The notes below the pieces were generated by a model. That model was not told the DNA's origin. It saw only the letters and a list, made by a program, of their open reading frames with translations, and searched no databases. The position numbers were made by a program, and so were the translations under genes. This document shows, piece after piece, positions 1-60,537 of a stretch of 64,000 nucleotides of DNA (within the stretch, counting starts at the first letter, position 1; each line of letters begins with the position of its first letter). This DNA is from Candidatus Rokuibacteriota bacterium. GTDB lineage: Bacteria > Methylomirabilota > Methylomirabilia > Rokubacteriales > CSP1-6. The DNA is taken from positions 32,568 through 96,567 of the forward strand of contig QHSI01000104.1 of the NCBI GenBank assembly GCA_003221515.1, in the 5' to 3' direction.

Positions 1-500
1 GGCTGGCGCGCACCTTTCAGATCGTCCGGCCGTTTCCGCGCATGACCGTGCTCGAGAACGTGCGGGTCGGCGCGCTCGCCCGCCATCCGCGCGCCGCGGA
101 GGCTCTGGAGCGCGCCCGCGGCGTCGTCGAGCGCGTGGGACTCGGCGCCCGCGAGCGCGTTCCCGCGTCGGCCCTGACGCTGCCCGAGCGCAAACGCCTC
201 GAGCTGGCGCGCGCGCTCGCCACCGAGCCGGCGCTGCTCCTGCTCGACGAGGTGATGGCCGGCCTCAATCCGACGGAGATCGAGACGCTGATCCAGCTGA
301 TCCGGGCCATCCACGCTTCTGGCGTCTCGATTCTCCTGATCGAGCACAACATGCGGGCGGTCATGGCGCTCTCCCAGCGGATCGTGGTGCTGAGCTTCGG
401 CGAGAAGATCGCCGAGGGGACGCCGGCCCACATCGCGCACCACCCGAAGGTGATCGAGGCGTATCTGGGCGACGAGTATGTCGACGCTGCTCCGGCTTGA
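1..500 (+). CDS. Branched-chain amino acid ABC transporter ATP-binding protein (LivG-type), 5' partial, runs in from upstream of the window
   Basis: Translation shows ABC signature region (LSGGMKQ-like 'LPERKRLELARALATEPALLLLDEVMAGLNP', Walker B, 'ILLIEHNM' H-loop, C-terminal 'IEAYLGDE'); no start in window; overlaps next ATPase by ATGA-type coupling. Confidence 0.8.
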   Translation, partial: LARTFQIVRPFPRMTVLENVRVGALARHPRAAEALERARGVVERVGLGARERVPASALTLPERKRLELARALATEPALLLLDEVMAGLNPTEIETLIQLIRAIHASGVSILLIEHNMRAVMALSQRIVVLSFGEKIAEGTPAHIAHHPKVIEAYLGDEYVDAAPA

Positions 501-11808: not shown

Positions 11809-12551
11809 AGGTCACCGTCCTTCGACTGGCGCTGCTGGCGGCGCTCCTGGCGGCGTGGGAGCTGGCCGGCCGCGCGGCCAACCCGCTGCTCGCCGTCCCG
11901 CCCTCGGCGGTCTTGCCGGCGCTACGCGATCTCCTGCTGCTTCGCTCGTACCCTCGGTTGCCGGCGAGCCTCTGCCTGACCGTGCGCGAGATCGGCGTGG
12001 CGTACGCGCTGGCGGTCGCGGCCGGCCTGGGCTGCGGCTTTGCGCTCGGGATGAACCGGCTGCTCGGCCGCGCCTGGGGGCCGATGATCGCGGCGCTCTA
12101 CGCGGTGCCCGCGGTGGTCTGGTACCCGTCGCTCATGCTCTTCTTCGGCCTCGACGCGGCGTCGAAAATCGCCTTCGGCTTCCTGCTCGGATTCTTCCCG
12201 ATCACGCTCGCGGTGCTCGCCGGCGTGCGCCAGGTGAACCCGCAGCTGGTCCTCGTCGCGCGGGCGTACGGCGCGGGCGTGGTGACGGTGTTCTTCCGCG
12301 TCATGCTGCCTTCGATGCTCTTCACGCTCGTCGGTGGGCTCCGGACCGGGCTCGCGCTGAGCGTGATCGGGGTCGTCGTCGGCGAGATCCTCGGCGCGAA
12401 GGACGGGATGGGCGCCCTCATCAACCACGCCTACGGCCTGCTGCGAACGGGAGACTACGTCGCGCTCGTGCTCGTCACGCTGGCCATCGTTGTCGGCTCC
12501 GACGTGCTGGCGAGCCTCCTCGAGCGCCGCGCAAAGGCGTGGACGGAGTGA
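11805..12551 (+). CDS. ABC transporter permease (NitT/TauT family) 1
   Basis: ~248 aa, six predicted TM helices; GTG overlapping ATPase stop. Confidence 0.8.
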   Translation: MKVTVLRLALLAALLAAWELAGRAANPLLAVPPSAVLPALRDLLLLRSYPRLPASLCLTVREIGVAYALAVAAGLGCGFALGMNRLLGRAWGPMIAALYAVPAVVWYPSLMLFFGLDAASKIAFGFLLGFFPITLAVLAGVRQVNPQLVLVARAYGAGVVTVFFRVMLPSMLFTLVGGLRTGLALSVIGVVVGEILGAKDGMGALINHAYGLLRTGDYVALVLVTLAIVVGSDVLASLLERRAKAWTE

Positions 12552-12555
12552 AACG

Positions 12556-12625
12556 GAGCCGGCTCGCGCCTACCTCAGGCCACCCTCGATCCGAGCCGGC
12601 CTCACGGGCCCCGCTACAATAATCA
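12556..12625 (+). repeat. Copy A of dispersed ~65-bp repeat core (GGAGCCGGCTCGC..CTCAGGCCACCCTCG..CCGGCCTCACGG..CCCCGCTACAA) immediately 5' of permease-2 start
   Basis: Near-identical core also at 19905-19975, 25115-25190, 55651-55720 (reverse) and, partly duplicated, inside uvrA at 58385-58485. Confidence 0.6.
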
Positions 12626-18523: not shown

Positions 18524-19867
18524 TCAGGCCGGGTTGGGCTGGGTCAGGCGGGTGCGGTGCACCTGGGCCTGAACGTCGCGCACGCGATCGCCGTCGAGCT
18601 CGATCTCCAGCTCGTGGTGCTCGACGTCCCAGCTCTGCACCGTCGCCAGCCATCCGAACTGCCGGCGCCGGTGGGGGACCGTGCGGCGCCCGCGATAGAC
18701 CAGCGTTCGCCGACCGGGCGCGTTGAGCCGCTCGCGCTCCTCCGGATCGGGTCCACAGATCTTCAAGATCTCGTCGTACGTCGTCTCGCCCGGGGCGATC
18801 CGGGTCAGCGTCTCGCGCGGGACGATCGTGCCGACATGCTGCTCGGCGCCGGCGCCGCTGCGCGGCCCGAAGCGGATGCGTCCCTGGAGCCGCGCGCCGA
18901 GCCGCCTGGCGAGGGTGGCGACGAGGGGGCCAGCGACGTTGCCGAGGACGAAGAACAACGTCGCGAAGAGCACCGGCGCCCACGACTGCCAGCCGGAGAA
19001 GTAGCCGTACTGCACGGTCAACACTTGAGGGCGGAGACCCTCCGACGGATCGATGTAGGTCGAGACGATCTCGGTCCCCCGGCGCGACTCGCTCGTGCGC
19101 CGTTGGCTCGAGCCCGGAAAGACTTCGTGGATCTTGAGGTGGTCGGAGTCCGCGAACGTGATGGTGAGTGTCGATGGATCGTCGGAGAGGTGGACCACCC
19201 GATCGCGATACGCGAGGTACATGGGGAACGTGGCGCGCGTGCGCACGTCGTTGAAGCTCAGCGTGACCAGGTGACGCTCGCCCCAGAGGAAGTTCTCCAG
19301 CCAGGTGGCCTGCTTCGGCCGCCTGAGCCCGGTGAGACGCATCCTGAGGTCGATCAAGAACGAGCGGTCGACGAGCCGCGGCGTCCACGGGATCCGGATC
19401 CAGGTGGCCGGCGTGGGCAGGCCGAGCGGCCCCGCCTCTCGAGTGTAGGTGACGAACGGCGCGCCGCCAGGGAGCGGCTCCGGCTTCGCGCGCTGAGGGC
19501 CGGAATACACGGCGCGGGCGGACAGCGGCAGGCGGCCCTCGCGGGCGACCTGGAACCCACGTTCCTCCACGGTCCGGCGCAGTGCCGGGTCCGGTTCTCC
19601 CGCGACCATCTCGCCGTCCACCGCGCCCGGCCACAGGAGATAGAGATCTTGCTCGAGCGCAGCGGCGCCGACGTTCGGCGGCACCACGAGACTCCAGAGC
19701 AGGCTGACTTCGACCGGACCACCGGCCGGCACCACGTTCGCGCGGATCGACAGCGGACCGATCGTGAACTCCGGCTTCGGCTTGGACGCGAGAAAGATCT
19801 GAGCGTGCGCCGGCGCCGCGACCAGCGCCAGCAGCACGGCGACGAGCAAGACGAGCAAACGGCGGGT
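18524..19867 (-). CDS. Hypothetical membrane-anchored protein, tandem paralog of 17186-18511; start uncertain (no in-frame ATG before the signal peptide; CTG 19867 or TTG 19849 candidates)
   Basis: Highly similar along its length to the neighbour ('QIFLASKPKPEFTIGPLSIRANV'); the 5' end of the ORF reads through a 21-bp tandem repeat and repeat core B. Confidence 0.55.
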   Translation of the reverse strand, partial: TRRLLVLLVAVLLALVAAPAHAQIFLASKPKPEFTIGPLSIRANVVPAGGPVEVSLLWSLVVPPNVGAAALEQDLYLLWPGAVDGEMVAGEPDPALRRTVEERGFQVAREGRLPLSARAVYSGPQRAKPEPLPGGAPFVTYTREAGPLGLPTPATWIRIPWTPRLVDRSFLIDLRMRLTGLRRPKQATWLENFLWGERHLVTLSFNDVRTRATFPMYLAYRDRVVHLSDDPSTLTITFADSDHLKIHEVFPGSSQRRTSESRRGTEIVSTYIDPSEGLRPQVLTVQYGYFSGWQSWAPVLFATLFFVLGNVAGPLVATLARRLGARLQGRIRFGPRSGAGAEQHVGTIVPRETLTRIAPGETTYDEILKICGPDPEERERLNAPGRRTLVYRGRRTVPHRRRQFGWLATVQSWDVEHHELEIELDGDRVRDVQAQVHRTRLTQPNPA

Positions 19868-19902
19868 TGTCCGCAGACCGGCGCGGGTTGTCCGCAGACC
19901 GG
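19862..19902 (+). repeat. 2 x ~21-bp tandem repeat (GCGGGTTGTCCGCAGACCGG) abutting repeat core B
   Basis: Direct tandem duplication seen in sequence. Confidence 0.7.
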
Positions 19903-19904
19903 TG

Positions 19905-19975
19905 CCCCGAGCATCTATCTCAGGCCACCCTCGGTTCAAACCGGCCTCACGGTCCCCGTTACAACATTCCCGCGA
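19905..19975 (+). repeat. Copy B of dispersed ~65-bp repeat core
   Basis: CCCCGAGCATCTATCTCAGGCCACCCTCGGTTCAAACCGGCCTCACGGTCCCCGTTACAACA; between the SBP stop (19982) and the paralog gene 5' end. Confidence 0.6.
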
Positions 19976-23340: not shown

Positions 23341-24555
23341 ATGACCATCGCTCGCATCGCCGCCGCATTCATCGTCGTCTTGAGCCTGGCCGTCGGCCCG
23401 GCGCACGCCCAGATCTCCGATGGCGTCGTCAAGATCGGCGTCCTCAACGATCAGTCGAGCCTCTACGCCGACCTGGCCGGCCAGGGCTCGGTGGTCGCGG
23501 CACGCATGGCCGTCGAGGATTTCGGCGCCGCCGCCAAAGGGCTGAAAGTCGAGATCGTGTTCGCCGACCATCAGAACAAGGCCGATGTCGGCTCGCAGAT
23601 CGCGCGCCAGTGGTACGACGCCGAGAAGGTCGATCTCATCCTCGACGTACCGAACTCGGGCGTGGCGCTGGCCGTCAATCAGATCACCCGCGACAAGGGC
23701 AAGGCGTTCATCGTTTCCTCCGCGGCGTCCTCGGATCTCACCGGCAAGGCGTGCTCGCCCAACACCGTCCACTGGACGTACGACACGTGGGCGCTCGCCA
23801 ACGGCACCGGTAACGCGGTCGTGAAGACCGGCGGCGACACGTGGTTCTTCATCACCGCCGACTACGCGTTCGGCCACGCCCTCGAGCGCGACGTCGAGGC
23901 GGTGGTGCTGAAGAACGGCGGCAAGGTGCTGGGCAAGGTGCGCCACCCGCTCAACACGCAGGACTTCTCGTCGTTCCTCCTCCAGGCCCAGGCTTCGAAG
24001 GCCAAGGTCATCGGGCTGGCCAACGCCGGCGGCGACACGACCAACGCGATCAAGCAGGGCGCCGAGTTCGGCATCGCGAAGGGCGGGCAGATCTTCGCGG
24101 GCCTGCTGGTGTTCCTCACCGACGTGCACGCGCTCGGCCTCGAGAAGGCCCAGGGGCTCACGTTCACCGAGACCTTCTACTGGGACATGAACGAGAAGAC
24201 GCGCGCGTTCGCCAAGCGGTTCGCCGAGCGCAACCGGCAGATCCATCCGACGATGATCCACGCGGGCGCCTACGCGGGCACGCTGCACTACCTGAAGGCC
24301 GTCGAGGCGCTCAAGAGCGACGACGGCGCCAAGGTCATCGCCAAGATGAAAGAGATGCCGACGGACGACCCGCTCTTCGGCAAGGGGACGATTCGTGTCG
24401 ACGGCCGCAAGATTCATCCGGCGTATCTCGTCGAGGTCAAGAAGCCCTCCGAGTCCAAGTACCCGTGGGACTACTACAAGATCCGCGCAACTATCCCCGC
24501 TGAGCAGGCGTTCCGGCCTCTGGATCAGGGGGGCTGTGAGCTCGTGAAGAAGTAG
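23341..24555 (+). CDS. Leu/Ile/Val-binding-protein-family ABC substrate-binding protein (type I periplasmic binding fold)
   Basis: 404 aa; signal 'MTIARIAAAFIVVLSLAVGPAHAQ'; 'VKIGVLNDQSSLYADLAG' LivK/LivJ-like; RBS AAAGGAG. Confidence 0.85.
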   Translation: MTIARIAAAFIVVLSLAVGPAHAQISDGVVKIGVLNDQSSLYADLAGQGSVVAARMAVEDFGAAAKGLKVEIVFADHQNKADVGSQIARQWYDAEKVDLILDVPNSGVALAVNQITRDKGKAFIVSSAASSDLTGKACSPNTVHWTYDTWALANGTGNAVVKTGGDTWFFITADYAFGHALERDVEAVVLKNGGKVLGKVRHPLNTQDFSSFLLQAQASKAKVIGLANAGGDTTNAIKQGAEFGIAKGGQIFAGLLVFLTDVHALGLEKAQGLTFTETFYWDMNEKTRAFAKRFAERNRQIHPTMIHAGAYAGTLHYLKAVEALKSDDGAKVIAKMKEMPTDDPLFGKGTIRVDGRKIHPAYLVEVKKPSESKYPWDYYKIRATIPAEQAFRPLDQGGCELVKK

Positions 24556-24565
24556 GCGCGTTGCG

Positions 24566-24725
24566 GCGGGCCCGGGGGCGGGGGTGCGAGAGGGGTGCGG
24601 CGACCACGAGGCACGCGAGCGCATTGCCCGGTGCGGCTGGGCTCCATCTGGGTGCGGCTCGCACGACGCTCGCTTGGAGGGAACGGGTCGGCGCACCCCT
24701 CTCCCACCCCCACCCCCGGGCCCTC
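24566..24725. mobile_element. MITE-like element family 1, copy 1 (~160 bp, ~29-bp terminal inverted repeats CCCGGGGGCGGGGGTGCGAGAGGGGTGCG / CGCACCCCTCTCCCACCCCCACCCCCGGG)
   Basis: Starts 11 nt after livK-like stop; internal ~90 bp conserved with copies at 45134-45295 and 45426-45594. Confidence 0.5.
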
Positions 24726-24920
24726 ACACAGCGACGCTTCGTCTACGTATTGCCGCACCTGATCCAACCCCGGCTCCGGCTGCATCGGCGCGTGAAATCA
24801 CTGCGCACCGTGCACGAGTCGTCGGACCTACGCGGCATTCGCATCCTTCGCAACGCACGTTTGGGCGCGTCGACGCCATGCCGCTCCCCGCACCGGGGAT
24901 GAACGGGCGGATCGGAGCCA

Positions 24921-25114
24921 CGGCGCGTCGAGCGCGCGGGTTGTGCGGGCGGGTCGGCGCCGGCGCGCGATCGCCGCGTGGGTTGGCCGGGCGGGTCGGC
25001 GCCGGCGCGCAATCGCCGCGTGGGATGGCCGGGCGGGTCGGCGCCGGCGCGCAATCGCCGCGTGGGATGGCCGGGCGGGTCGGCGCCGGCTGGCAATCGG
25101 CGCGCGGGTTGTAC
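24921..25114 (+). repeat. Minisatellite: ~4.6 tandem copies of a 42-bp unit (GGGCGGGTCGGCGCCGGCGCGCAATCGCCGCGTGGGATGGCC) fused to repeat core C
   Basis: Units at 24947, 24989, 25031, 25073 (42 nt each, few substitutions), partial unit before; contiguous, no unique spacers. Confidence 0.8.
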
Positions 25115-25190
25115 GGGCGTGTCGGAGCCGGCTCGCATCTACAGCAGGCCACCCTCGGCATGAGCCGTTCTCAAGCTCCTATACAATGAC
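25115..25190 (+). repeat. Copy C of dispersed ~65-bp repeat core, ending at/overlapping the livH start codon
   Basis: GGGCGTGTCGGAGCCGGCTCGCATCTACAGCAGGCCACCCTCGGCATGAGCCGTTCTCAAGCTCCTATACAATG. Confidence 0.6.
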
Positions 25191-26052
25191 GCAGGCGTTG
25201 TTCGGGCAGCTGCTGATCGGGCTGATCAACGGCTCGTTCTACGCGATGCTGAGCCTCGGGCTGTCGGTCATCTTCGGGTTGCTCAACATCATCAACTTCA
25301 CGCACGGCGCCCAGTACATGATGGGCGCGTTCGTCGCCTACTTCCTGTTGAACTGGGCCGGGCTCGGCTACTGGTGGGCGCTGCTCATCGCGCCGGTCGT
25401 GGTAGGGATCACCGGGGTCGTGCTCGAGCGCACGACGCTCAAGCGGCTCTACCAGCTCGATCACCTGTACGGCCTGCTGCTCACGTTCGGCTTCGCGCTG
25501 ATCATCCAGGGCCTGTTCCGGCACGAGTACGGCTCATCGGGCTTGCCCTACGCGATGCCCGCGCAGCTCGGCGGAGGCCGCAACCTCGGGTTCATGTTCC
25601 TGCCCAACTACCGGGCGTGGGTCATCGTATTCTCGCTCGCGGTGTGCCTGGCGACCTGGTACGTGATCGAGCGCACGCGCCTGGGCGCGTACCTGCGCGC
25701 CGCGACCGAGAATCCGTCGCTGGTGCAGGCGTTCGGGATCAACGTGCCCCGGATGATCACGCTGACCTACGGGTTCGGCGTCGGCCTCGCGGCCCTGGCC
25801 GGCGTGCTGGCGGCGCCGATCTACCAGGTGAACCCGCTCATGGGCGCCGATCTGATCATCGTCGTCTTCGCGGTGGTCGTCATCGGTGGGCTGGGCTCGA
25901 TCTTGGGCTCGATCGTCACGGGCTTCGCGCTCGGGGTGGTCGAGGGCTTCACCAAGGTCTTCTATCCGGAGGCGTCCAACACGGTGATCTTCGTCATCAT
26001 GGCGCTCGTGCTGCTGGTGCGGCCCGCCGGCCTCTTCGGGCGAGCCACGTGA
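25186..26052 (+). CDS. Branched-chain amino acid ABC transporter permease (LivH-type)
   Basis: 289 aa; 'MTQALFGQLLIGLINGSFYAMLSLGLSVIFG' canonical LivH N-terminus; no SD, start codon embedded in repeat core C. Confidence 0.85.
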   Translation: MTQALFGQLLIGLINGSFYAMLSLGLSVIFGLLNIINFTHGAQYMMGAFVAYFLLNWAGLGYWWALLIAPVVVGITGVVLERTTLKRLYQLDHLYGLLLTFGFALIIQGLFRHEYGSSGLPYAMPAQLGGGRNLGFMFLPNYRAWVIVFSLAVCLATWYVIERTRLGAYLRAATENPSLVQAFGINVPRMITLTYGFGVGLAALAGVLAAPIYQVNPLMGADLIIVVFAVVVIGGLGSILGSIVTGFALGVVEGFTKVFYPEASNTVIFVIMALVLLVRPAGLFGRAT

Positions 26053-53650: not shown

Positions 53651-54116
53651 CGGGCGCGACGCGGCCGCCAGTCATCCGCACGAGGTCGTCGGGCGTGAGC
53701 TTGAAGACCGTGTTCGGGTGACCGGCCGCCGCCCAGATCTCCGGCCACTGCATCAGGTCTTCGTCGATCAGGATCGTGAGCGGCTCGGTGTGGGCGATCG
53801 GCGGGACGCCGCCGATCGCGTAGCCCGTCTTGGCGCGCACGAAGTCGGCGTCCGCGCGCGCGATGGGCTCGGCGAGGAGCCCGGCGACCTTCAGCTCGTC
53901 GACGCGATTGGCGCCGCTCGCGACGACCAGCACGGCGCGCTGGCTCTGGGCGCCGCGGAACACGAGCGACTTCGCGATCTGCTCGACGCGGCAGCCGACC
54001 GCGCGCGCCGCCTCGGCCGCCGTCCGCGCCGGCTGCTGCAGCGCGACCACGGAGTGGCCGCCGCCGACCGCGGCCAGCGCGTCCTGCACTCGCTGAACGC
54101 TGGCATTTGGGATCAT
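53628..54116 (-). CDS. YbaK/ProX-type aminoacyl-tRNA deacylase domain protein
   Basis: 163 aa from 'MIPNASVQRVQDALAA'; 'VKSLVFRGAQSQRAVLVVASGANRVDELKV'; ORF-track N-terminal extension is the 50-bp tandem duplication. Confidence 0.65.
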   Translation of the reverse strand: MIPNASVQRVQDALAAVGGGHSVVALQQPARTAAEAARAVGCRVEQIAKSLVFRGAQSQRAVLVVASGANRVDELKVAGLLAEPIARADADFVRAKTGYAIGGVPPIAHTEPLTILIDEDLMQWPEIWAAAGHPNTVFKLTPDDLVRMTGGRVAPVRTGGGR

Positions 54117-54212
54117 TGATAGACTCGCCTCGTCGGAGGCACCGTCTCGGCTCGTACGACCATCATTGATAGACTCGCCTCGTCGGAGCACCGTCTCGGC
54201 TCGTACGACCAT
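54114..54212. repeat. 2.2 x tandem ~49/50-bp direct repeat filling the redoxin-ybaK intergenic region
   Basis: CATTGATAGACTCGCCTCGTCGGAG(G)CACCGTCTCGGCTCGTACGACCAT twice, copies differ by one base; begins with the last codons/stop of the upstream gene. Confidence 0.7.
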
Positions 54213-54949
54213 CACTTGATCGCGCGCACCGCGCGGGCGACGTCGGTCGGGTCGGGTCGCACCTGGTAGTTGTCGGCCACCGTGAGCCAGCGGACGATCC
54301 CGTCGCGGTCGAGGACGATGGTCGCCGGCGCCGGCACGTCCTGGCCCTTGTCGCCACCGCGAGCGTGGAGGAGGCCGTACCGCTGCGTCACCGCGAGGTC
54401 GCGGTCGGCGAGAAAGCGGTAGCGGGCCTTCAGCCGCTCGGCGAGCCCCTGGCTCCGCTCGTTCGTATCGGGGCTGATCGCCAGGATCTGCACGCCCTCG
54501 TCACCCAGCTCTGTGAGCACCGCTCCAAGCCCTTGGAGCTCCGACACGCAGAAGGGTCACCAGTAGCCGCGGTAGAAGACCACCACGACCGGCGTGCGGC
54601 CGCGGAACGACGCGAGCGCGACGGGCGTTCCCTTGGCGTCCGGCAGCGTGAAGTCCGGCGCGGGCTGGCCGACGCGCAGTATGGGCGGACCCAGCGGGAT
54701 CCTCGCCATGACGAAATTGAAGTAGCCGCCGAGCCCCAGGAGCGTCACCGAGAGCGCGAGCGCAATCAGATTGGGCCAGCGGGGCGCTCGCACCGTGGCA
54801 ACGGCCGCGATCGCCGCCGCGAGCGCGAACGCGGCGACGTAGAGCGCCGGGTGGTTGCGAATGACGGGCACGCGCAGGAAGGAGAAGTAGCCGACGATGG
54901 CCCCGATCGAGAGCGCCACGCTGAACAGCGCCGGGCCGTACTTGCTCAT
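54212..54949 (-). CDS. Membrane-anchored thioredoxin-fold thiol:disulfide oxidoreductase/peroxiredoxin-like ('redoxin') with in-frame TGA at the first position of the W-[TGA]-P-F-C active-site motif: candidate selenoprotein (UxxC) or, alternatively, a nonsense pseudogene
   Basis: Two ORF-track pieces (54557-55075 and 54212-54547) are the same frame separated only by TGA at 54557-54559; combined 245 codons: 3 TM helices, then 'GQPAPDFTLPDAKGTPVALASFRGRTPVVVVFYRGYW*PFCVSELQGLG...'; 7-bp hairpin GCTCCAA-GGGC-TTGGAGC begins ~17 nt after TGA. Confidence 0.5.
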
Positions 54950-55644
54950 CGCCCGAGAACGATCCGGTCGAAGGTCTCCGCGAACGCGTAGCCCTTCGGC
55001 TTGCCGAGCTCGGCCGAGCGTTCGCGCACGCGCTTCTCGACCCCCTCGAAGTCCTTGAACTGGCTCGCGTGGCACGCCAGCGCCTTGATCTTCAGATCGA
55101 TGACGTCGGTGATGTCAACCACGAGGTTCGGGGTCTCCCACTGCATCAGGTAGACCTCGAGCACCTTGTGCGGCTCGTAGTCGGGCATGAGCTCCGGGAA
55201 CGACATGTGGTCGCGGGCCAGCGGATAGACGCAGTCGAGGGCGACGCCGGCGGTGACGCGATGATCGCGGTGCGAGCCGCCGAGGTTGTACGTGCGATTC
55301 GGGTTCATCGCGATCAGAAGGTCCGGACGCCACTTGCGGATCTGTCGCGTCACGTCGCGGCGCAAGTCGCGGGTGTCCTCGACCTCACAGTCGGGATAGC
55401 CGAGGAACTCGATGCGCGACACCCCGAGCGTGCGGGCGGCGTTGCGCTGCTCCTCCGCGCGAATCAGCGCCAGGCGCTCGGGCGTCATCGTACGGTCGCT
55501 CGAGCCCTTGTTGCCGTTCGTCACGATCACGTACGTGACCTCGCAGCCGTCCTTGACCAGCTTGGCGATGGTTCCACCGGCGCCGAACTCGGAATCGTCG
55601 GGGTGCGCCGTGACGACCATAGCGCGTTGGATCTTCTCGGACAC
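54946..55644 (-). CDS. LmbE/PIG-L-family N-acetylglucosaminyl deacetylase (MshB/BshB-like)
   Basis: 232 aa; 'AMVVTAHPDDSEFGAGGTIAK' and 'GGSHRDHR' zinc-binding motifs; GTG start with AGGAGG RBS. Confidence 0.8.
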   Translation of the reverse strand: MSEKIQRAMVVTAHPDDSEFGAGGTIAKLVKDGCEVTYVIVTNGNKGSSDRTMTPERLALIRAEEQRNAARTLGVSRIEFLGYPDCEVEDTRDLRRDVTRQIRKWRPDLLIAMNPNRTYNLGGSHRDHRVTAGVALDCVYPLARDHMSFPELMPDYEPHKVLEVYLMQWETPNLVVDITDVIDLKIKALACHASQFKDFEGVEKRVRERSAELGKPKGYAFAETFDRIVLGR

Positions 55645-55650
55645 TTTCGC

Positions 55651-55720
55651 CGCCTCCTGTTGTAGCGGGGTCCGTGAGGCCGGCTTGCACCGAGGGTGGC
55701 CTGAGATAGATGCGACCCGG
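55651..55720 (-). repeat. Copy D of dispersed ~65-bp repeat core (reverse orientation), immediately 5' of the LmbE-like gene
   Basis: Reverse complement reads CCGGGTCGCATCTATCTCAGGCCACCCTCGGTGCAAGCCGGCCTCACGGACCCCGCTACAACAGGAGG. Confidence 0.6.
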
Positions 55721-55924
55721 CTCCGCTCGCCCGGTCAACCCTTTGATGCGACCCGGCTCCGCTTGCCCGGTCAACCGTTCGATGCGATTCCGGCTCCGCT
55801 TGCCTGGTCAACCCTTTGGTGCGACCCGGCTCCGCTCGCCCGGTCAACCGTTCGATGCGATTCCGGCTCCGCACGCCCGCTCATCCCTTCGATGCTGGTC
55901 GAACCCGCTTAGATGCGTGGGTCC
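55711..55924 (-). repeat. Minisatellite: ~5.8 tandem copies of a 36/37-bp unit (TGCGACCCGGCTCCGCTCGCCCGGTCAACCCTTTGA) attached to repeat core D
   Basis: Units start 55711, 55747, 55783, 55820, 55856, partial 55893; same position relative to the core as the 42-bp array at copy C. Confidence 0.8.
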
Positions 55925-55958
55925 AGGATACTGATTCTGGGGGTGGGGTGGGAACGGC

Positions 55959-55964
55959 TATAAT
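55959..55964 (+). promoter_or_regulatory. TATAAT -10 box 6 nt upstream of ATG 55971 (possible leaderless transcript)
   Basis: Perfect hexamer in 70% GC DNA; no convincing -35. Confidence 0.25.
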
Positions 55965-55970
55965 CGCGCG

Positions 55971-57654
55971 ATGCCGACGGCCGCTCGGCGCCGGGCGGGA
56001 GTCGTGGCCCTGCTCGGTCTCCTCGCCGGCGCGCTCCTTCTGATGCCGGCGCCGGGCAACCCGGGAGCACTCAGGCTCGCCGGGATCAGCCTGCTCTGGT
56101 GGTACGCCGCTCTCGTCGCTCCGCTCGCCGCCGTGCTCGTGGTGGTCGCCGTCGAGCGGGGGGCCGCGGCCGAGGGCGCGGCGCCCGCCGGCTCCGCCGC
56201 GGTCAGCGTCGCGGCGTGGGCGTCACCCATCGTCCTCGCGGTCGTCGCGGCCTCCGTCTTCACCGGCGCCGTCGAAGCGCCGGCCGCGATTCTCGCGATC
56301 ACGGTGGCGCCGCTGATCGCGCTGCTCGTCCCGTCCACGCGCGAGACGATACGCGAGAATCCCGTCGCGCCCGTGGCGACGGGCCTGAGCATCGGGCTGA
56401 TCCTCTGGGCGAACCTCTCGCTGCTGGGTGACGTCGCGGGCGCACTGGGCTATCCACGGCGCACGTCGAGCCTGCTGGCCGCGGCGCTCGCCCTGGTGGC
56501 CGTCCGCTTGCGCGCCGACTTCGTCGCCGGCGGTAAGGGGCTCGTCCTGCTCTACGCCGGCGTTCTCGGCTTCGTCGTCCCGGTGGCGTTCGTCGCGCCG
56601 ACGGTGGCGGTTGCTCCTTGGAACGCGTGGCGCGACGTGGCGTCGAGGCCGGCACTCACGTTCGGCGAGCGCCATGCGTGGGTGACCGAGGGTCGGACCC
56701 TCGTGATGCCGGTCGCCCTCGACTTCACGGAGGCGCATCGCGTCACCGCGCTCGCGCCGGCGACGTTTCGAGTCTTCGAGCTCGACCGGCTCCGCGAATG
56801 GCAGCTGCGCGCGGGCGACTCGCTCTCGCTGCGCCCCGGCGACCGGCTGGTGCTGGACGCCGGGGCGCGCTTGAAGTTCGAATCGGGCAAGCGTGTCCCG
56901 GGGGCGGCGGCCTCGGGTATCACGTGGGCCGATCCGCCGGAGCGGGGAACCGCGTCGACGGCGGCGCGGGCGCTCGGGGCGGTGTTCTCGCTGGTCGGAG
57001 GCGCGCTCGCGCTGTTCCGGTCGCGCCGGGCCGCGTCCGGTGAGGGCCTGCCGACCGGCGCGGGACTCATGCTCTCGCTGGTGCTCGTGGCCGCCTGCCT
57101 CGGTATCTACGCCGCCTATGCCGCGCCAGGGCTTTCCATCGGGGTACCGCCGCTCGCCGCGGTGTTCGGCTTGCCGGCGGCGGTGGTTCCGGGCGCTGCC
57201 GGCCGGACCCTCGCCCTGGTGGGCGCCGCCGGGCTCCTCGTCCTCTTCCTCGCCACCGCGACCGCGTTGAGCGACATCCTCGACGCGACGCTCGCGGGTT
57301 CGGGCCGACGGAAGTCGGGCTTCTCCATCGGGTCGCCCCTGGTGCGAACGTTGCTCTCCGATCCACCGACCGTGATCCTGGTCCTGTCGGCCGGCGCCGC
57401 GGTCGTGTCGCCGGACGACGCTTCGCGCATCCTGTTCGCCGGGCTCGGGCTGACGGCGTCGACGATCGTGGCGCCCCGTCTCGCGGGCGACGGCCGCTGG
57501 GCGCGGCTGGTCGGCTCGCTCGTCGGCATGATCGCGTTCGCCGCGGTCGCCTTGTACGGTAGGCACCTGCCGGGGTGGGCCGGCGCGGTGTGGACCTACC
57601 CGGCGCTCGCCGCCGCCCCCTTGGCGTGGACCGCGAGCCGTATAATAGAGCGCC

Positions 57655-57665: not shown

Positions 57666-60537
<2,872 letters not shown>

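Follow-up and report, generated by a model that had tools for sequence, protein, structure and literature searches.

A modular interspersed repeat with strain-variable tandem arrays at the start codons of Candidatus Rokuibacteriota genes

Overview

The tandem arrays described here, from a 64,000-nucleotide stretch of DNA of a Candidatus Rokuibacteriota bacterium (hereafter the window), are best read as variable-number tandem repeats (VNTRs) of the 5' module of a modular, MIRU/BOX-like element situated at start codons, with unit number changing by slippage under a constraint to keep the reading frame; we give this reading a probability of about 60%. The element belongs to a repeat family dispersed through Rokubacteria, for which our literature searches found no describing paper and which is apparently undescribed so far.

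The repeat family and its modules

The core sequence, CAGGCCACCCTCGG, occurs exactly at positions 19921 (+), 25145 (+) and 55703 (-) of the window and with one mismatch at 12576 (+) and 58401 (+). These five matches compare with 1.3 expected, and none of the shuffled sequences reached five. With a profile made from related copies, nhmmer recovered five full copies in the window (elements A to E) with E-values from 1e-20 to 4e-11. When one genome per species was searched with the pattern CAGGCCACCCTCGNNNNNNNCCGNYCTCA (21 specified bases), at least 110 loci matched, and nearly all of the matches listed were metagenome-assembled genomes (MAGs) of Candidatus Rokuibacteriota/Methylomirabilota. Megabase contigs (up to 3.3 Mb) are among the carriers, including carriers of 66-bp tandem copies. 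In the 843 kb of fetched loci, nhmmer identified 151 near-full copies; as these loci were gathered by the exact core pattern, the estimates of conservation drawn from them are biased upward.

The anchored consensus reads ...GGGTTGAnCGGGCGnG(n)CGGAGCC(GGGTC/GGCTC/ACGCC)GCnCCTnTCT up to the right end of the 5' module and continues with CAGGCCACCCTCGGTCCAAGCCGGCCTCAcGGnCCCCGCTACAATGA, varying only at a few positions (13-17, 29, 32 and 44). The element consists of three modules, namely a 5' module (GGGTTGnnCGGGCGnGnCGGAGCC..CGC..CTnTCT), a core module (CAGGCCACCCTCGG..GCCGGCCTCA) and a 3' tail (CGGnCCCCGCTACAATGA), and spans about 66-110 bp overall, the core copy accounting for about 66 bp. According to TRF, 88 of the 151 copies carry an attached array, and the arrays are of three kinds: the 5' module repeated with a period of 15-73 bp, the whole unit repeated in tandem (typically 66 bp, up to four copies), and the 3' tail repeated at about 15 bp (CCCCGCTACAACAnn). 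Since the 5' module, the whole unit and the tail are each found arrayed, the element is modular and any of its modules can be multiplied.

Anatomy of the copies in the window

The initial annotation had described tandem arrays ahead of cores C, D and B and none ahead of core A. TRF located the arrays essentially where they had been claimed, with scores too high for chance, and the rest of this anatomy was likewise confirmed, with each array directly adjoining its core copy. At C, TRF reported a 42-bp unit in 4.9 copies (24933-25137, 90% match, score 305). Read in the 42-bp register, array C occupies 24896..25105 (+) and comprises five 42-bp units, the first of them diverged, each being a copy of the 5' module in the variant GGGTTGGCCGGGCGGGTCGGCGCCGGCGCGC... 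It is followed by a terminal 5' module (GGGTTGTACGGGCGTGTCGGAGCCGGCTCGCATCTACAG) that matches the family consensus and is fused to the core (25106..25144, +), and then by core C itself (25145..25189, +), which was delimited by core match, nhmmer and ORF reading and ends in ACAATGA. The element thus abuts livH with the sequence ACAATGACG: the livH ATG lies at 25186-25188, and the overlapping TGA at 25187-25189 closes an ORF (24584..25189) that crosses every unit of array C, with in-frame ATGs at 25025 and 25067.

Array D, on the minus strand, was resolved by TRF either as a 36-bp unit in 5.1 copies or as a 73-bp double unit in 2.6 copies (55709-55895); read by units, it spans 55742..55908 (-) and contains four units of 37, 36, 37 and 36 bp plus one degenerate unit, all 5'-module variants of the form GGGTTGACCGGGCGAGCGGAGCCGGGTCGC... 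Element D (55659..55741, -), composed of a terminal 5' module (55704-55741) and the core (55659-55703), is followed by AGGAGG (55653-55658), eight further nucleotides and the GTG of a PIG-L gene (55642-55644).

Array B consists of a 21-bp unit (GCGGGTTGTCCGCAGACCGGC) in two exact copies, reported by TRF at 19862-19902 and delimited here as 19862..19903 (+); this unit represents the GGGTTGTCCGCAGACCGG subtype of the 5' module, which recurs in other MAGs. The remainder of the 5' module and the core make up element B (19904..19967, +; core match and nhmmer), which is antisense to both neighbouring minus-strand genes. Array B probably lies within the 5' end of a minus-strand gene, where its two units would each encode GLRTTR(A/R) in front of a signal peptide. 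For this gene, encoding a 471-aa secreted protein, the start chosen by the gene caller is a TTG inside the antisense core B (window 19862-19945, read on the minus strand).

Element A (12548..12622, +; profile match and sequence reading) is a short form without an array, its repeat copy being placed at 12555-12622. It holds a 24-codon ORF whose GTG overlaps the TGA of the upstream gene (GTGA, 12548-12551) and whose TAA lies at 12620-12622. The fifth copy, element E (58379..58480, +; nhmmer and UvrA Pfam domains), was missing from the initial annotation; it lies in frame inside uvrA and has a duplicated 3' sub-module, with nhmmer placing a core copy at 58384-58445 and a partial 3' module at 58448-58475. 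It is inserted between ...VETVDG and TFSEKLAC, a site that is also occupied in other MAGs (L039, L045 and L023).

That units from different sites are related, as had been noted from the window, follows from their all being variants of one family-wide 5' module, GGGTTGnnCGGGCGnGnCGGAGCC...CGC. No solo 5' modules beyond chance were found elsewhere in the window.

Array length differs between strains

The comparison of array length across strains, which had been proposed as a check, showed that unit number differs at C and D among contigs with identical flanking proteins and flanks. For array C, ten contigs from different samples that encode a LivH identical to that of the window were compared; counting the terminal unit, there are alleles of three units (L111), six units (the window) and ten units (L112 and L113), the last two differing in unit order. 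All of the length changes occur in 42-bp steps between identical flanks, and seven contigs with identical LivH end within the array. Among contigs with an identical PIG-L protein, array D has alleles of three units (five assemblies), five units (the window and L124, with identical unit order) and six units (L123), again counting the terminal unit, and three further contigs have N-gaps at the array. The 21-bp pair at B is invariant in the four strain-level contigs compared. At copy E, a 30/33-bp sub-repeat is present once or twice in strains with otherwise identical sequence; the reading frame is kept in every case, and the UvrA proteins have 950 versus 960/961 aa. Among species-level orthologues of the D locus, the core is at the same place and the 5' arrays are quite different.

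As these are short-read assemblies, the copy numbers of arrays longer than a read may be imprecise, and one could ask whether the arrays and their length differences are products of mis-assembly of repeats in short-read metagenomes. Several contigs do end inside arrays or carry N-gaps, and arrays of 250-420 bp are longer than a read. Nevertheless, the three-unit D allele is present in five independent assemblies and the five-unit allele, with the same unit order, in two; the alleles differ by unit-specific single-nucleotide substitutions, which collapse alone does not produce; and megabase contigs of up to 3.3 Mb carry the family, 66-bp tandem copies included. Simple collapse therefore does not explain the alleles, and we regard an assembly artefact as very improbable indeed. 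The arrays at C and D are true VNTRs. The view that the 5' part of the element expands and contracts holds, the arrays being multiplied 5' modules in strain-variable number, and the anatomy of a core with an expandable 5' array is supported as well.

The element adjoins start codons

Across the family, a gene on the same strand, as judged by GC3 phase, lies downstream in 101 of 118 copies, and in 86 of these 101 it is in frame with element position +43. Where the flanking genes could be called with confidence, both run in the direction of the element in 60 of 71 cases. Conserved proteins have their true start at the ATG at +43..45, as in the orthologue sets beginning MSDLLVVGS, MKLLIIARP and MIRLPPFTY, and in about a third of the copies the start codon is supplied by the last bases of the element. 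Copies inside genes are a minority, and those found are in frame. The downstream genes are functionally unrelated, including transporters, a purD-like gene, epimerases and uvrA.

Where an ATG or GTG stands at +43, it is part of ATGA or GTGA in 51 of 54 copies, so that a reading frame crossing the element meets its stop at the start codon. The ATA variants of the junction all have A or G next and again form a stop. The A after the ATG may also simply belong to the element consensus, which has R at +46; in the ordinary genes of these contigs an A follows the start codon in about half. Those ordinary genes have AGGAGG-type Shine-Dalgarno sequences, whereas genes fused to the element have CCCCGCTACA at the corresponding place. 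In 30 of the 51 fused copies an in-frame start is present in the 5' module, usually at -25, which would open an ORF of about 23 codons; in 12 of the 51 there is no start in either frame within 60 nt. The stops of upstream genes are mostly scattered, from -25 to beyond -300, and an overlap between the start of the element ORF and the upstream stop is clear only in copy A.

Several loci (L031, L061, L009/L066/L090, L005 and L085/L105) have ATA, ATC or ACA at +43 where the orthologues have ATG; a purD-like gene fused to the element, for example, reads IKILIVGGGG against MKVLLVGGGG. These sequences hint at non-AUG initiation or reinitiation, or at starts further upstream in the element. At the arrays, gene callers predict spurious antisense ORFs or lengthen LivH through the repeats to 337-360 aa (L113 5138-5953, P0001/P0002/P0019).

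Unit lengths and the reading frame

After de-duplication, most arrays have periods that are multiples of three (3n): among 5'-module arrays this holds for 22 of 28 (binomial p=1e-6), among whole-unit arrays for 14 of 16 (p=1e-5) and among tail arrays for 8 of 11 (p=0.009). The bias depends on context: 16 of 19 arrays that are fused to a start codon or in frame have 3n periods, versus none of the three that precede a gene with its own Shine-Dalgarno sequence (Fisher p=0.013), whose periods are 37, 73 and 73, array D of the window being among them. Since slippage has no reason to prefer 3n, we infer selection on something that reads triplets.

The frame that would be translated cannot be read from the sequence, because internal stops are rare in all three frames of the element. 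Pseudo dN/dS values of 0.74, 0.96 and 1.30 showed no strong coding constraint in any frame. A conserved peptide had been considered, as the variation in the core looked 3-periodic in the QATLGPSRPHGPRYN frame, and was rejected on the values just given (0.74 versus 0.96 and 1.30). Long frame-1 ORFs through the element, seen at 36 loci, were also discounted: judged by GC3, they mostly do not follow the true coding frame of the upstream gene, leaving about six real read-throughs. A Shine-Dalgarno sequence built into the 5' module was discarded as well, the enrichment being slight (-4.0 versus -3.2 kcal/mol for random sequence, true genes reaching -6.3).

The 3n periods would also fit low-complexity coding minisatellites, in which the arrays lengthen the downstream proteins at the N terminus or the upstream ones at the C terminus. 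Open frames do run from the arrays into livH (ORF 24943..26052), upstream genes read through to the stop at +44 in about six loci, copy E is certainly translated inside uvrA, and the B repeat is probably within a signal-peptide n-region. On the other hand, LivH orthologues start at a conserved MT(T)IFGVP/MTQALF with no extension, orthologous sites that are empty of the element indicate that the proteins function without the segment, purifying selection is clear in no frame, and array D has non-3n units upstream of a gene with its own Shine-Dalgarno sequence. As a general account of the arrays, coding minisatellites are therefore quite unlikely.

Promoter, terminator and RNA structure

The initial annotation had suggested that the arrays, whose units contain TTGACC-like hexamers, could give phase-variable expression of the downstream genes. 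In such a scheme each unit would contribute a -35-like hexamer, and unit number would alter promoter strength or spacing. Copy number does vary between strains, GGTTGACC is present in every D unit, and in pneumococcus the number and orientation of boxB modules modulate expression (PMC3049150). The hexamers are thus real in array D, but they have no -10 element at a usable distance, and the C units read TTGGCC, ATGGCC or TTGTGC rather than TTGACC. No sigma-70-like promoter was found in or spanning the arrays (24500-25300 and 55550-56050), with the proviso that sigma-70 rules may not be those of the host. Furthermore, a TTCnCA-N18-TATsCT block upstream of array D is conserved in both filled and empty sites, so the array would lie downstream of this promoter-like block, in the 5' UTR. 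A promoter array would also leave the 3n bias without explanation; where the element is fused to a start codon, units of 3n length keep a frame rather than switch it. Promoter-based phase variation therefore finds no support in these sequences, and we consider it improbable.

A leaderless promoter using TACAAT within the element was rejected because the ATG overlaps the hexamer and the geometry is wrong. The divergent membrane-protein gene that starts at 55971 (+) is preceded by TATAAT-N6-ATG of the leaderless-mRNA type (window 55960-55985), suggesting that this organism uses canonical -10 boxes and leaderless starts.

Intrinsic terminators were absent from arrays C and D. A structured RNA or riboswitch was set aside for want of an Rfam match and a consensus fold: Rfam 15 gave no match in the window at the gathering score, scans by E-value gave a single chance-level match (E 4.3), and RNAalifold found no consensus structure (mean z -0.37). 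A hairpin in the 5' module suspected by eye did not hold up, arm pairing being 3.19 versus 3.00+-0.11 for shuffled partners. Nor is the element a MITE, as no terminal inverted repeat of 8 nt or more was present in four window copies.

A separate tandem repeat of 50 bp, unrelated in sequence to the core family, is located at 54112-54220 among minus-strand genes, between an AhpC/TSA-like gene and a YbaK/tRNA_edit gene. It spans a stop/start junction (AAGTGATGG...CAATGATGG...CAATGATCC) and is present in one or two copies in strain-level contigs.

Filled and empty sites

A tblastn search among the loci already collected yielded no clean empty sites; these were found instead through protein-based look-ups, in which LivH orthologues were sampled by protein and hence independently of the repeat. 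In four other species groups, with LivH 93-94% identical, the livK-livH spacer lacks the element and consists of a conserved 175-nt hairpin followed by the ATG. In the lineage of the window, L111 and L062, the spacer holds 300-440 extra bases, made up of other sequence and then the array and core, and this extra segment ends exactly at the start of livH: the filled site reads ...TACAATGACC up to the junction and ACGATTTTC after it, and the empty site ...GGCATG and then ACGATTTTG. The D site is filled in one and empty in four of five unbiased PIG-L orthologues, the empty sites showing a promoter-like block, a short leader, a Shine-Dalgarno sequence and the start. From the empty sites in related species it follows that individual lineages acquired the element at individual sites, and the comparison of filled with empty sites indicates insertion at translation-initiation sites. 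As orthologous sites are empty, the genes do not need the element.

The last point bears on the proposal that the core is a cis-regulatory site in the DNA or the mRNA leader, bound by a phylum-specific protein or small RNA and controlling hundreds of genes, to which 5'-module arrays would add or titrate binding sites. Conservation of the core is strongly position-specific without an RNA fold, its orientation and distance to start codons are fixed, and it is kept at the same site of the D locus in seven species. Yet that conservation is inflated by pattern-based sampling, the downstream genes have no function in common, copies also occur inside coding regions and in antisense orientation, and the relatives with empty sites manage without it. 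We therefore hold a cis-regulatory role to be unlikely.

No target-site duplication was identified at the junctions compared, the 3' junction lying exactly at the ATG or beside the Shine-Dalgarno sequence. At filled sites whose gene has its own Shine-Dalgarno sequence, (C/A)GGAG directly follows CTACAA and resembles the CGGAGCC in the 5' part of the element (filled sites L146, L023, L106, L045, L080 and window 55653-55665, compared with empty sites L153 and L148); in L153 the empty site has the sequence ACGGGCGAGAGGAGAC, which resembles a solitary 5' module. From these sequences, the (C/A)GGAG may represent a GGAG target duplication, microhomology or an excision scar.

The hairpin of the livK-livH spacer is itself of note. 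It is GC-rich, lies at 24556-24730 (+) directly after the livK stop (dG -129.5 kcal/mol, z -7.1), is conserved in species without the repeat element, and may stabilise the mRNA or act as an attenuator between the binding-protein and permease genes. Contigs L132 and L133, with identical LivH, differ by a 99-bp segment whose absence removes half of this conserved hairpin, so the spacer is unstable even without the element.

Comparison with known modular repeats

The combination of a core with an expandable array had been called unusual, but close precedents exist in the pneumococcal BOX elements (PMC3049150) and the mycobacterial MIRU-VNTRs (PMC3184786, PMC12548453). In organisation, the nearest analogue is MIRU (Supply et al. 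1997, as summarised in PMC3184786 and PMC12548453). According to these summaries, MIRU units of 40-100 bp lie in operon spacers in gene orientation, are often tandem and strain-variable, and have ORFs that overlap neighbouring genes (PMC3184786); they insert at start codons, with the internal ORF coupled to the gene at a -4 nt spacing (PMC12548453); and filled and empty sites are found between relatives and units are transcribed within operons (PMC3184786, PMC12548453). The Rokubacteria element is likewise dispersed between co-oriented genes in gene orientation (101/118; 60/71), its tandem copy number is strain-variable (at C, D and the uvrA sub-repeat; B is invariant, n=4), its ORF, as predicted from sequence, has a stop that overlaps the downstream start by 4 nt (ATGA), and there are filled and empty sites at C and D. 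Unlike MIRU, it belongs to a different phylum, so that the likeness is put forward as an analogy; each of its three modules can expand separately, its core is long and invariant, it has no established flanking tetranucleotide direct repeat, it also occurs in frame inside genes and upstream of normal Shine-Dalgarno sequences, and copy A alone shows clear coupling to an upstream stop.

BOX elements of Streptococcus pneumoniae have the structure boxA-boxBn-boxC with an internal expandable module, and length variation between strains is greater for longer arrays; they have terminal inverted repeats, target-site duplications and a predicted stem-loop RNA, and are not tied to start codons (PMC3049150). 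The Rokubacteria element resembles them in its composite, interspersed nature, with one module arrayed in tandem in variable number and a length that differs between strains, in the open frames that run through it and in its usefulness for strain typing. It differs in what expands, namely the 5' module, the whole unit or the 3' tail and no internal module, in the lack of terminal inverted repeats, a target-site duplication and a stem-loop, and in abutting start codons.

Rickettsia palindromic elements (RPE) are palindromic and mostly known from coding insertions (PMC3184786). Copy E, in frame in uvrA, adds a peptide segment as RPE can in essential genes; in Rokubacteria, however, copies inside genes make up a minority, and the element is not palindromic. 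The present element also shares some features with REP/BIME sequences, being an abundant GC-rich intergenic repeat inside operons that is sometimes clustered in mosaics. REP sequences of enterobacteria and pseudomonads are hairpins of about 35 bp that follow stop codons and are linked to RAYT transposases, whereas the Rokubacteria element has no conserved hairpin and abuts start codons. On the features compared, the element falls into none of these families.

A proposed history and its implications

In the reading that we prefer, the element would enter certain sites in sense orientation, directly ahead of a gene and mostly between co-directional genes. Slipped-strand mispairing or unequal recombination would presumably then amplify its modules, or the whole 66-bp unit, into tandem arrays. 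Ribosomes would traverse the element, either along a short leader ORF ending at the ATGA overlap or as an in-frame extension, and unit lengths would be held to 3n where the element is fused to the start and be free where the gene has its own Shine-Dalgarno sequence. Changes in array length would accordingly be a largely tolerated polymorphism, perhaps tuning translation, and not an on/off promoter switch.

A bolder version is that the element acts as a natural, mobile cassette of 'bicistronic design', whose portable leader cistron brings ribosomes to Shine-Dalgarno-less starts at hundreds of Rokubacteria genes. We put this forward as a tentative idea that is considerably more likely to be wrong than right. 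If true, it could explain why ATA, ATC or ACA is tolerated at conserved start positions; each in-frame unit would carry its own start, the number of ribosomes arriving would depend on the array, and array length would be a heritable, fast-mutating tuner of translation.

For genome analysis, the arrays account for broken contigs and N-gaps in assemblies of Rokubacteria, mislead gene callers into N-terminally extended or antisense ORFs, and offer ready VNTR markers for strain tracking in metagenomes. The family adds a phylum-wide repeat from a large uncultured soil phylum to the few modular interspersed repeats known to have variable arrays (MIRU and BOX). Together, the ATGA junction and the excess of 3n periods at fused starts suggest a MIRU-like pattern outside mycobacteria, in which the element survives at start codons by leaving translation intact, and translational coupling by mobile leader ORFs thereby becomes testable in a second, unrelated lineage.
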